Source of the DNA: a virus
Virus record (IMG/VR): IMGVR_UViG_3300008113_011148
Span: 3,755 to 67,754 of that record
Strand: one strand, 5' to 3'
Length of the DNA stretch: 64,000 bases
Below are positions 56,362-59,022 of this stretch, piece by piece. The first letter of the stretch is position 1, and the number at the start of each line of letters is the position of its first letter. A program made the translations under genes and the position numbers. The notes under the pieces are model-generated. The model did not search any database and had not been told where the DNA came from. It saw only the letters and a list, made by a program, of their open reading frames with translations.

Positions 56362-57834
56362 ATGTTTAAATTTATATTATTCTTTTTTAGTTTATTTATA
56401 TTTAATTCTATTTCATCTCAAATAGTTCCAATTGGTAATTCAGGTGTTCGACCAACATCATATACCAATGGATCTACTAACAATTCTATTTTTATTTGGT
56501 GTGGATCAGGAAATAATGGTTCTTTATCTTACACACCGAGTAACGGAACATCACCTTATACATTTAACTGGTTTCAATATTCATCAACAACATTTTCTTG
56601 GAACACACTTACTACTCAAACTGGAAACTCATCAACTTTAAGTAATCTATCTAATGGTGGATATAGAGTTGAAGTTTACTCATCTAATGGTGTATTAGTT
56701 GCGTGTGATATTGCTTGGGTTTGGAATGTCAATAATATAGTAACTGTAAATAATACACAACTAACTTGTAATAGTGTTAATTTAAGTGGAACAAATAATA
56801 TAAGTCCTAATACTTTTACATATTATAACCCTCCGCCTCCACAATCTTTAATAAACGCTAATACTAAAGTAACGGTTTGTTTTACCGGCACACACACTTG
56901 GGTGTCTGATTTAGGGTTTTACCTAATTGGTCCAGTATCTTGTGGTAGTCCAGTTATAACACTTTCTCCTAATCCAGGATCTAATGGTCAAAATATTATA
57001 TGTAATAGTGGTAACAATTTTAATAATCTATGTTTTACAAATAATACAGCCCCTAATTTTAATCCTTGTGCCGCAGCCACTCCTTTGACCGGAACATACG
57101 ATTCTTATGGTTCTGGTGGTGGCACGCTAATAAATTGGTCTCCTTTAATTGGATGTAACGCTGCTCAGGGTGGATGGAGAGTGCAAGTTTTTGATTGTGT
57201 TTCACTTGATTTTGGAACATTATCAAGTGCTGCTATTTCTTTTACAAATTTAACATCTATTTGTGGATCACCCACAAGTATAACATATAGCTCCGGAACT
57301 ATAAATTCACCTATAAATGATAATTCTTGTTCTCAAGCTACTGGTTCCGTTTATCAAGTTCCACCACTTGCAAATTTAACAACGCCTATTACTATAACTG
57401 GCACATCATCTACACAATGGACTAGCTCACCAAATGTTTCTATAACAAATAACAATCTAATAAATACTACAGCAACTGGTATAAGCCAACAAACAACATT
57501 TACATTAACTTCTACTTTTAGTATAGGTGGTACTTCAATTTGTGTTTCAACTGCTCAAACAACATTTACACCTTATCAATTAAATGCAAATGTTACACCA
57601 ACAAACCCAGTTTGTGATAATGCTTGTAATGGAACAGCAACTGCTACACCTTTAACCGGATCAGCTCCTTTTACTTATGTTTGGACACCATCCGGTTCTA
57701 CACAAACCATCACAAATTTATGTGAAGGAATATATAATGTAATTATCACTGACTCTTTTGGCTGTCAAACAACAGGAAGTGTTACCTTAACAGACCCGGT
57801 TGCACCAGTGTTGAATCCAATAAGTCATGACTAA
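56362..57834 (+). CDS. Secreted protein with P-domain-like region and SprB repeat, no T9SS CTD; ends PVLNPISHD (putative fibre tip)
   Basis: Signal peptide; THTWVSDL...GGWRVQVFD; NPVCDNACNG...DSFGC. Confidence 0.7.
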   Translation: MFKFILFFFSLFIFNSISSQIVPIGNSGVRPTSYTNGSTNNSIFIWCGSGNNGSLSYTPSNGTSPYTFNWFQYSSTTFSWNTLTTQTGNSSTLSNLSNGGYRVEVYSSNGVLVACDIAWVWNVNNIVTVNNTQLTCNSVNLSGTNNISPNTFTYYNPPPPQSLINANTKVTVCFTGTHTWVSDLGFYLIGPVSCGSPVITLSPNPGSNGQNIICNSGNNFNNLCFTNNTAPNFNPCAAATPLTGTYDSYGSGGGTLINWSPLIGCNAAQGGWRVQVFDCVSLDFGTLSSAAISFTNLTSICGSPTSITYSSGTINSPINDNSCSQATGSVYQVPPLANLTTPITITGTSSTQWTSSPNVSITNNNLINTTATGISQQTTFTLTSTFSIGGTSICVSTAQTTFTPYQLNANVTPTNPVCDNACNGTATATPLTGSAPFTYVWTPSGSTQTITNLCEGIYNVIITDSFGCQTTGSVTLTDPVAPVLNPISHD

Positions 57835-57855
57835 AATAAAAATAAAAAAAGAAAA

Positions 57856-58437
57856 ATGAAAAAATTATTAGCTTCTTTAGTTGTTTTATTTACAAGTTTT
57901 GTGAGTTTTTCACAGACATTTACAACAACTCAACCAGACACGGTTTGTTTTGGTTCAACAACACCTTCAACCTATCAGGTACCTTCGGTTGGAACTGGAA
58001 CCTACACTTGGACAATTCCAGCTTGTGCGACTCTTGTATCGGGCCAAGGTACAAACCAAATTCAAGTAAATTGGTCCAACTGTCCTGCTGGTTTAATCAC
58101 AAATGCTATTTCAGTAACATTTACATCTGCTGCTGGATGTCCTTCTCTTCCTGTTGATATGGATGTTTTAATCTATCAAATAACACCAACAATTGCAGCA
58201 CTTGGTCCATTCTGTGAATCTGATCCTTGTGTTAATTTAGTTGGAACTCCTACTGGTGGTGTTTGGTCTGGAACAGGTGTAGTTGGTAACCAATTTTGTC
58301 CTGATAACGTAGCAAATGGAACTAACGCGACATCAACTGTAACTTACACTTATACAAATGGTGGTTGTACTTTTACAACTTCTGTAGTGGTGCCTGTATT
58401 TGGAACACCCACATTATCACCTATACAACACGATTAA
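57856..58437 (+). CDS. Secreted two-Ig-domain protein ending PTLSPIQHD (putative fibre shaft)
   Basis: Signal peptide; PDTVC...SGQGTNQIQVNW; GPFC...PTGG.WSG.GV....FCP. Confidence 0.7.
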   Translation: MKKLLASLVVLFTSFVSFSQTFTTTQPDTVCFGSTTPSTYQVPSVGTGTYTWTIPACATLVSGQGTNQIQVNWSNCPAGLITNAISVTFTSAAGCPSLPVDMDVLIYQITPTIAALGPFCESDPCVNLVGTPTGGVWSGTGVVGNQFCPDNVANGTNATSTVTYTYTNGGCTFTTSVVVPVFGTPTLSPIQHD

Positions 58438-58455
58438 AAAATAACTTACTTAAAA

Positions 58456-59022
58456 GTGTATAAATTATTAAGTTTCATATTCTCAATAATAAGTTTCATT
58501 TCACTTTCACAACAAACTGTTGAAGTTTGCAAAGGTGAGAGTGAAGTGGTTACTTATTGGGTTGAAACTAATTCACCTGGTGACATTGTTTGGTCGGTAA
58601 ATGGCATAAGTTATAATATTGACCAACTAGTAATGTATTGGAATGAACCAGGTACATATAATATTTCAGTTACTCAGAAAAATGGTATATGCGAGGATGT
58701 AGAGTATTTTACAGTACAAGTGAATTATTGTGATGAGTTAGTTTATTATGTACCTAATTCATTTACGCCAGATGATGATAACTACAATAATATTTTTCAG
58801 CCAATTTTCACATCTGGCTTTGACCCATTTGATTTCCATTTAACAATTTTTAATAGATGGGGTGAAATAATATTTGAATCCTTTGATGCTGCAAAAGGTT
58901 GGAATGGTTATTATGGTGATATTAGATGTCAGGATGGTGTTTATACTTGGAAAATTGAATTCGGAAGACCAGGTATTGATGACAAAGAATTAATCACAGG
59001 ACATGTTGTGTTGATTAGATAA
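58456..59022 (+). CDS. Secreted single-Ig protein with T9SS type B C-terminal domain (putative fibre anchor)
   Basis: GTG start, signal peptide, TVEVC..., YVPNSFTPDDDNYN...IFNRWGE...GHVVLIR. Confidence 0.8.
   Translation: MYKLLSFIFSIISFISLSQQTVEVCKGESEVVTYWVETNSPGDIVWSVNGISYNIDQLVMYWNEPGTYNISVTQKNGICEDVEYFTVQVNYCDELVYYVPNSFTPDDDNYNNIFQPIFTSGFDPFDFHLTIFNRWGEIIFESFDAAKGWNGYYGDIRCQDGVYTWKIEFGRPGIDDKELITGHVVLIR

Follow-up and report, generated by a model that had tools for sequence, protein, structure and literature searches.

How can a secreted adhesin be divided among three genes when only one of the three products carries a secretion domain? The question is raised by positions 56362-59022 of a 64,000-nucleotide stretch of viral DNA (positions 3,755 to 67,754 of IMG/VR virus record IMGVR_UViG_3300008113_011148), which we call the window. 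Three consecutive genes there, genes 1, 2 and 3, are collinear with a single-chain protein encoded elsewhere in the window, an adhesin whose C-terminal domain (CTD) is of type B for the secretion system named type IX (T9SS). A first-pass annotation of the sequence had proposed that the last strand of each upstream product completes an immunoglobulin (Ig)-like domain of the next. We find that the split is a conserved form of the adhesin and not the result of decay. On balance we think it probable that genes 1 to 3 encode a split SprB/PKD-type adhesin of Flavobacteriales, carried by a huge phage, whose products assemble into a tip-stalk-anchor chain by donation of tail strands and are carried out by the T9SS.

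The features on which the argument depends are as follows.

56362..57834, plus strand: gene 1, 'tip', 490 amino acids (aa); signal peptide 1-19, then Q20; variable head; SprB-repeat-like unit at about 409-445; tail PVLNPISHD; no CTD
57805..57831, plus strand: PVLNPISHD, the last nine residues of gene 1 (482-490), a putative donor strand
57856..58437, plus strand: gene 2, 'stalk', 193 aa; signal peptide 1-19, then Q20; PKD_6 domain; second Ig-like domain; tail PTLSPIQHD; no CTD
58408..58434, plus strand: PTLSPIQHD, the last nine residues of gene 2 (185-193), donor strand in the modeled complex
58456..59022, plus strand: gene 3, 'anchor/carrier', 188 aa, started by GTG; signal peptide 1-18, followed by Q19; a single Ig-like domain; type B CTD of the T9SS at 99-188
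1641..3830, minus strand: single-chain (fused) paralog, 729 aa; SprB repeat, PKD_6, Ig-like, Ig-like and type B CTD; the internal reference for the uncut form

Three signal-peptide proteins and one secretion domain

Each of the three products appears to be exported on its own. By inspection, each N-terminus has M followed by K, Y or F, a run of hydrophobic residues, one small residue and a Q, and this Q is invariant in the aligned homologs of gene 2 (43 of 43) and of gene 3 (43 of 43). A Gln directly after the leader agrees with the Q-rule for signal peptides of Bacteroidetes (PMC5837995 and PMC10653852).

The three products differ in their C-termini. Gene 1 ends in ...PVAPVLNPISHD and gene 2 in ...GTPTLSPIQHD. 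Gene 3 has a type B CTD that scores above the curated cut-offs of both PF13585 (43.7 bits, cut-off 27) and TIGR04131 (40.8 bits, cut-off 35). T9SS export and anchorage by a PorP/SprF-like protein are therefore expected for gene 3; such proteins are named as the anchors of type B CTD cargo in PMC9143113 and PMC12618676. Genes 1 and 2 gave no CTD match at E≤0.1, TIGR04131 included, and alone are not members of the type B CTD cargo. With a Sec leader and no CTD, each would be expected to stay in the periplasm if alone. The first-pass annotation had gene 3 carrying the only type B CTD. This is true among the three genes, and the record has a second one in the fused paralog.

The fused paralog shows what an undivided form looks like. 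Pfam recognizes a SprB repeat, PKD_6 and CHU_C in it, PKD_6 in gene 2 (PF19408, 36.7 bits, residues 22-94) and CHU_C in gene 3; gene 1 has no Pfam or NCBIfam match. By BLASTP, residues 254-487 of gene 1 match fused residues 137-393, the Pfam SprB repeat included (E 8e-11, 26% identity), residues 25-193 of gene 2 match 400-558 (E 3e-23, 36% identity), and residues 22-188 of gene 3 match 562-729 (E 3e-47, 46% identity). The collinearity noticed at first pass is thus borne out, and the description of the locus as the tip, stalk and anchor of a divided single-chain T9SS adhesin is supported.

The split and the tails are conserved

The tail pattern that we followed is I-x-H-[NDYF] at the exact C-terminus, and the sample is 64 sources, the window plus 63 loci. 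In 60 of the 64, two or three upstream genes end in this pattern; exactly two open reading frames (ORFs) bear the tail in 57 sources and three do so in 3. The remaining four are a fused-only locus (L003) or are ended by a contig edge. Within the window, genes 1 and 2 are the only ORFs of at least 100 aa that end this way. The scan of viral contigs yielded 53 loci, and in each of these whose contig is intact, gene 2 has gene 3 directly behind it and a tail-bearing gene upstream. The scan of one genome per species yielded 9 loci in metagenome-assembled genomes (MAGs; Flavobacteriales, Bacteroidota, Weeksellaceae), some of them on contigs of 164-974 kb amid ordinary bacterial genes. In the MAG loci too, gene 3 comes after gene 2 unless a contig end intervenes. 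Gene 2 itself has 385 homologs at E≤0.001, and the best 120 of the 385 are mostly 185-195 aa long. One record among the tblastn matches to gene 2, LR745206, has the fused form only.

In gene 2, P-I-Q-H is invariant in all 35 distinct ends, with synonymous codons varying. In gene 1, I at position -4 and H at -2 are invariant in all 37 distinct ends and are encoded by ATA, ATT or ATC and by CAT or CAC. Since synonymous codons vary under invariant residues, selection acts on the peptide. The several synonymous codons also ruled out a role of the tail as a DNA signal, such as a ribosome-binding site or a terminator. The two tails share the motif L-x-x-I-x-H and differ systematically at -3 and -6. 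Gene 1 tails mostly have N, S, T or I at -3, and two of the 37 distinct ends have Q there, as in L036 (...LGAIQHN). Distant MAG loci end in ...PINH[YF], ...PIIHY or ...PIQHF. The ending described at first pass, PIxH[ND], was kept in every homolog examined.

A profile search with gene 2 gave 15,330 matches at E≤0.001, and the best 150 of these are all long multi-repeat proteins (839-6321 aa). The domains of gene 2 are therefore common building blocks, and this search says nothing about the split family. The pattern ATHNNNCAYAAYTRR, used to look for orphan tails, had 21, 23 and 26 matches in the carrier MAG genomes G001, G002 and G003, compared with 15, 9 and 22 for a reversed control. Three matches in G001 (G001:C6:724475, 725237 and 725904) are, by their coordinates, the three known tails of the G001 locus. 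Two more I-Q-H-N-stop matches in G001 (L068 and L069) do not end an ORF of at least 110 aa.

Where the cuts fall

If a tail replaces a strand of the next domain, it should correspond to a segment of the single-chain protein directly ahead of that domain. At junction 2, between genes 2 and 3, the correspondence is exact. D193 of gene 2 falls on D558 of the fused paralog and Q19-T21 of mature gene 3 fall on 559-561, with no gap and no overlap, so that PTLSPIQHD plus QQTVEVC lies ungapped on PEIVEINPD plus NAFIQIC (fused 550-565). The ungapped fit extends to 40 more members of the fused family, with the consensus P-x-P-x-I-x-x-I-x-P-[DY]-[ND]-x-[FY]-x-x-[IL]-C. In the fused family, the position opposite the final tail residue (N, D, Y or F) is mostly D or Y, and the one opposite the tail His is a Pro, invariant in 41 aligned fused sequences. 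The family comprises 1469 proteins at E≤1e-10; a pattern scan for relatives of the fused paralog in viral contigs gave none, and the alignment was taken from a homolog search instead.

At junction 1, between genes 1 and 2, the correspondence was aligned by eye. Tails of gene 1 homologs, for example ...TLTNPPQIVVGPINHN, match the fused ...TLTNPPIPTVGPITGP|DTIC, and the gene 1 tail aligns without gaps with the segment GPI[TI]G[PS] that stands ahead of DT[IV]C and PKD_6 in the fused family. This A-strand segment has its Ile opposite the tail Ile and a Gly opposite the tail His. The equivalent segment in ordinary PKD_6 arrays is T-S-A-I-T-G (P0249), where gene 2 has a near-invariant Thr in place of the core-facing Ile. 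The inter-domain linkers of the single-chain type B CTD adhesins are homologous to the tails.

Mature gene 2 prefixes about seven residues (Q-L/T-T-T-T-N/Q-P) to the invariant D-T-V-C. Since these residues parallel a fused segment that the gene 1 tail already matches, junction 2 alone of the two junctions is cut cleanly. The first-pass annotation had started gene 2 at QPDTVC, but the mature start is most likely Q20 (QTFTTTQPDTVC).

Structure models

The model of the fused paralog places the strand where the alignment does. In an AlphaFold2 (AF2) model of residues 377-729 of the fused paralog (mean pLDDT 87.6), I552-N556 (local 176-180), the equivalent of the gene 2 tail, form a beta-strand in a block with pLDDT 94, followed by strand 560-564, the equivalent of the start of gene 3. 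Mature gene 2 modeled alone (mean pLDDT 90.3) has its first strand at residue 28, with no A strand modeled. It is coil over its first 8 and its last 11 residues, and the pLDDT of residues 1-4 is under 50. The suggestion at first pass that the N-terminal domain of gene 2 is incomplete by itself therefore agrees with the prediction. By sequence, the start of gene 3 lies past the A strand, and its Ig-like domain begins at the A' strand (QQTVEVC). Of the refuting conditions named at first pass, those that sequence and models could address did not occur.

The complex of mature gene 2 (20-193) and mature gene 3 (19-188) was modeled in three runs with three controls, from our own shallow alignments (42 rows). 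The interface score ipSAE was 0.73, 0.72 and 0.74, and the best of the three controls reached 0.01. The mark for this score is reached by 58 of 80 solved complexes and by 2 of 110 mismatched pairs, counts that serve as a rough guide only given our own alignments. Contacts agreed at 97% or more among the runs, and the pLDDT of the partner was at least 85. Residues 182-193 of gene 2 and a few loops of its second domain contact gene 3 residues 20, 32-40, 42, 70, 72 and 74-85. The tightest pairs are I190, Q191 and H192 on gene 3 residues 33-36, and L187 and I190 on 72, 81, 83 and 85. We read these contacts as a gene 2 tail that forms an A strand against strand B of gene 3 and turns its hydrophobic side chains into the core. 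A Foldseek search with gene 2 found tandem Ig-like folds only and no two-chain precedent.

Of the earlier proposal that a tail strand completes the next subunit, the part that concerns gene 2 and gene 3 gains support from this model and from the strand in the fused protein. The part that concerns gene 1 and gene 2 comes from alignment.

Variable heads

The gene upstream of the stalk gene varies greatly among loci, and the tail stays the same. In phage loci this head gene encodes 197, 205, 348, 425, 490 or 632 aa, and in MAG loci 440 to 901 aa. Its domains are CUB, PKD and P-domain, GEVED and PKD, ALK/LTK glycine-rich, weakly galactose-binding-like, or none that is recognized. The head of gene 1 in the window is 45-55% identical to the N-terminal part of bacterial single-chain CHU_C proteins of 680-830 aa, for example P0316, named Fluviicola taffensis. 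Thus, one head is found in two settings, in a single chain with a stalk and CTD of its own, and on a separate CTD-less piece that ends in a tail.

A model for assembly and export

We postulate the following sequence of events. Each product would enter the periplasm under its own Sec signal peptide, whose cleavage would bare an N-terminal Gln. The upstream subunits, which lack a secretion domain, end in ...L-x-x-I-x-H-[NDYF]-COOH, a peptide that could serve as the A strand of the first Ig-like domain of the next subunit. In the N-terminal domain of gene 3, strand B would pair with the gene 2 tail, whose Leu and Ile would fill the core, and the gene 1 tail may dock likewise on the PKD_6 domain of gene 2. 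The outcome would be a non-covalent tip-stalk-anchor chain, most likely 1:1:1, that the host T9SS carries and that the single type B CTD of gene 3 holds on the cell surface. The split would allow very different heads to be placed on one common stalk and anchor.

The steps of this model differ in strength. The gene structure, its conservation, the collinearity with the fused paralog and the modeled gene 2-gene 3 interface are what we observe. The modeling and the homology support donation by gene 2 to gene 3, and docking of gene 1 on gene 2 is suggested by the aligned sequences. We infer the stoichiometry, the assembly in the periplasm, the co-export through the T9SS and a gain to the phage.

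Several observations weigh against the model. The invariant His of the tail is Pro or Gly in fused forms. The tail is invariant, but gene 3 varies in its acceptor domain (mean column identity 31%), which hints at an additional constraint. The modeled pair amounts to the two halves of a split gene, from which the prediction may simply rebuild an intact Ig-like domain; it reports likeness and not binding, and the alignments behind it are shallow. For gene 1 and gene 2, the evidence for docking is the alignment. In gene 2, the conserved Q20, T24, P27 and D28 run parallel to the A strand of PKD_6 repeats and could fill the slot in cis. PorP/SprF (PF11751) is absent from the 67.7-kb record, which is 21% complete. 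In G001 and G002 no PorP/SprF gene is beside the split locus, and the nearest ones on the same contig are about 195 kb and 120 kb away. Finally, RNA traces are limited to a single 207-nt contig of run X20, a polyA metatranscriptome; it is identical to 57865-58021, within gene 2, may be DNA carry-over and is not counted as expression.

Genomes G001 to G003 have 6-10 PF11751 matches each (10 in G001, 8 in G002). As PorP/SprF is not near the locus, the partner would be encoded elsewhere by the host. A conventional pair is present elsewhere in G001 (G001:C9, L068 2435-4371), where a 337-aa ORF ending in ...VSILR adjoins a PorP/SprF gene (PF11751, 200.9 bits); the split locus of G001 has no such neighbor. 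By eye, this ORF looks like type B CTD cargo.

Alternative explanations

The first-pass annotation had proposed a self-polymerizing fiber, in which copies of gene 2, which has both an acceptor and a donor, string together into a homopolymer of variable length between a gene 1 cap and a gene 3 anchor. We consider this unlikely, although several findings point toward it. The tails of genes 1 and 2 share L-x-x-I-x-H, and the gene 1 ends with a gene 2-like Q at -3 suggest that the acceptor of gene 2 may tolerate its own tail. In addition, the MAG loci L058, L061 and L062 have two tandem, near-identical 186-aa stalk genes (...VLTPIQHN and ...VLSPIQHN) with the same N-terminal domain, flanked by a 771-aa head gene and an anchor gene; if copy a docks on copy b, self-docking would be possible. 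However, 57 of the 64 sources have exactly two tail-bearing genes, and the strict P-I-Q-H of gene 2, compared with the mostly N, S, T or I at -3 of gene 1, suggests distinct acceptors. The coupling of genes 2 and 3 is also unlike that of an excess major pilin. Of 39 distinct junctions between them, 23 are TAATG, a 1-nt overlap, and 5 have no gap, so that in 28 the gap is zero or less, which suggests near-equal amounts and not an excess of shaft subunit. A defined chain fits this coupling, the tail differences at -3 and -6, the variable heads and the presence of mostly one stalk gene per locus better than a polymer does. Should gene 2 also accept its own tail, which we doubt, the product would be a T9SS-exported, CTD-anchored filament of variable length built by A-strand donation. 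This would be a further class of bacterial pilus, with which a huge phage remodels the surface of the infected cell using interchangeable tips.

A second alternative, which we find less likely again, is that gene 3 is a common carrier with the only open acceptor, and that genes 1 and 2 are each loaded on separate gene 3 molecules to form two alternative heterodimers. By sequence, residues of the A strand are missing only from gene 3. The PKD_6 match of gene 2 begins at profile position 6, with the mature start near position 4, and the complex model covers the gene 2-gene 3 pair alone. These points favor a carrier. They are countered by the ungapped match of the gene 1 tail to the A-strand segment ahead of PKD_6 in the fused family, by the AF2 model of gene 2 alone, which lacks an A strand, by the near-invariant Thr of gene 2 at a core-facing position that is Ile in PKD_6 repeats, and by the systematic difference between the two tails.

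The tail might instead be a sorting or recognition signal: rather than act as a strand, I-x-H-[NDYF] would be read by some other factor of the host, for example a protease, a chaperone in the periplasm or part of the T9SS. In favor of a signal, the motif stands at the exact C-terminus, its His is invariant and yet dispensable for the fold, and conservation is much higher in the tail than in the gene 3 domain on which it is modeled. We nevertheless give this explanation only a small chance, given that the tail is collinear with an A strand at both junctions, that the complex model is specific relative to its controls and that no known family matched. Asn/Asp isopeptide or ester chemistry at the tail was considered because phage tails end in N or D, and was dropped because the distant bacterial loci L063-L065 end in Y or F and the fused position is D or Y.

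It is extremely improbable that the stop codons are recent damage, or are read through into one polypeptide: the three ORFs of the window do share one frame, separated by single TAA codons (57832-57855 and 58435-58455) with no further stops between, but a signal peptide heads every piece, nearly all sources keep the arrangement, frame relations vary among loci, with the 1-nt overlaps breaking the shared frame, and the tails are under purifying selection, and we reject a pseudogene or read-through on these grounds. Both stops are present in contigs of independent DNA runs that span them without indels (X16 and X17 over 57832-57856; X17 and X19 over 58435-58456). No terminator-like sites were found between the genes. 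Promoter-like sites numbered 21, compared with a shuffled expectation of 33.3, in a scan that does not cover Bacteroidota promoters.

The phage and its neighborhood

The cassette is carried on phage DNA, as the first-pass annotation had it, and its carrier is a huge freshwater phage of Flavobacteriales. The source is a virus record of 67,754 bp, with a CheckV completeness estimate of 21%. The window is AT-rich (27-32% G+C), and no tRNA genes were found in it. Its large proteins match PHROG families, both subunits of topoisomerase II among them. A PrkA/YeaG-like protein of the window is 86% identical to its counterparts in two records labeled 'uncultured phage', LR756502 (642,428 bp) and LR745206 (634,780 bp). 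Genomes of 634, 636 and 642 kb are placed in the Mahaphage clade, with Bacteroidetes as predicted hosts, by Al-Shayeb et al. (PMC7162821). The PrkA/YeaG-like protein (640 aa) is in a cluster on the minus strand (40922-45695) with proteins of 421 aa and 498 aa, all with strong PHROG matches; the 421-aa protein also matches a family labeled 'sporulation protein'. Huge phages, Ralstonia phage RsoM2USA and Thermus phages also have the PrkA/YeaG-like protein.

The stretch 56362-59022 recurs with little change (0.57 or more of the sampled words) in 19 DNA runs from about 15 studies of 2017-2025, of which 15 runs may be the source of the window DNA. The labels of the 19 runs are freshwater, lake water or 'fungus metagenome'.

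The cassette is surrounded by other T9SS cargo, which includes the fused adhesin and two further genes.

52385-54037, minus strand: subtilase, 550 aa; Peptidase_S8, 105.8 bits; T9SS type A CTD, TIGR04183, 31.4 bits, above cut-off
54144..56360, plus strand: gene 0, 738 aa; CUB, GEVED and an F5/8-type-C-like stretch; weak type A CTD (TIGR04183, 17.1 bits, under cut-off)

The subtilase is divergent from the adhesin operon and looks like a phage-encoded secreted protease. Gene 0 and gene 1 are 1 nt apart and probably share an operon. Gene 0 has homologs upstream of the cassette in three other loci (L004, L038 and L043). It stands outside the tail-linked chain.

Implications

If the model is correct, CTD-less proteins would be loaded on a CTD carrier by the loan of a beta-strand and exported as a pre-assembled chain, a hitch-hiking route through the T9SS. 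Prediction of T9SS secretomes would change, and CTD-less proteins that end in I-x-H-[NDYF] would be counted as cargo. The arrangement would be a natural plug and socket that places unrelated heads on one stalk and anchor, and it could provide a small natural tag and acceptor pair for surface display in Bacteroidota. It would also mean that huge freshwater phages carry and diversify modules of the host surface.

Comparison with known systems

The closest solved fold to gene 2, by TM-score and identity, is that of the grappling-hook protein GhpA of Aureispira (PDB 9flp, 9fls and 9flu; TMq 0.51-0.57, 22% identity). GhpA has tandem Ig-like repeats and is also a surface protein of Bacteroidota, but it is one giant chain, and the likeness is in the repeat fold only.

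Bacteria have other ways of completing one subunit with a strand of another. In chaperone-usher pili, the neighboring subunit supplies in trans the strand that an incomplete Ig-like fold lacks, as we propose for the cassette on the basis of the modeled complex. Chaperone-usher pilins lack the C-terminal G strand, donate an N-terminal extension and depend on a PapD-like chaperone and an usher. In the cassette, by contrast, the donor would be a C-terminal tail and the strand supplied would be the N-terminal A strand. PapD_N (PF00345) and the usher (PF00577) are both absent from the record; the same searches matched control genomes, E. coli included.

The type V pili of Porphyromonas gingivalis (FimA/Mfa1) come from the same phylum as the cassette family. 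Their C-terminal strands complete the fold of the next subunit, with a logic of tip, shaft and anchor. Type V pilins are lipoprotein precursors that are cleaved by gingipains with removal of the N-terminal strand, and they are not known to be T9SS cargo. The leaders of the cassette are instead of the signal-peptidase-I type, with Gln at +1 and no Cys after the signal peptides of genes 2 and 3; it is the A strand that would be donated, and a T9SS CTD protein would be the anchor. Genes 1-3 have no match to FimA/Mfa Pfam families at E≤0.1, and PF06321 is absent from the record, in a search that matched the control genome of B. thetaiotaomicron. Papers on type V pili, for example PMC4789730 and PMC5954841, name donor-strand complementation.

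Within the T9SS, reviews and abstracts describe cargo as one polypeptide with its own C-terminal domain. Compared with type B cargo anchored by PorP/SprF, the cassette would present a pre-assembled chain of several proteins, and PorP/SprF is not adjacent to it in the record, G001 or G002. A phage precedent for T9SS cargo is 'Cryophage' (PMC7468147), a Bacteroidota phage whose variable proteins with T9SS sorting domains are presumed to use the host system. That cargo consists of single-chain enzymes with type A CTDs, and the passages on it describe no split subunits or tails. Full-text literature on the T9SS that mentions donor strands, strand complementation, piggyback or hitch-hiking comprised only type V pilus papers, reviews and unrelated uses, subscription journals lying outside the search.

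The nearest relatives of the cassette are the single-chain type B CTD adhesins, the SprB-type proteins with a 'gliding motility-associated C-terminal domain', among them the fused paralog at 1641-3830 and P0316. They have the same order of head, SprB repeat, PKD_6, Ig-like domain and CHU_C/TIGR04131, and they too have a Sec signal peptide. The cassette differs in being divided among three genes with three signal peptides, two of the pieces lacking a CTD, and in the nature of the cut, which turns a Pro or Gly into an invariant His and stops the chain one residue further on. The split form of T9SS adhesin is thus real and conserved, and in the literature searched it is previously undescribed.

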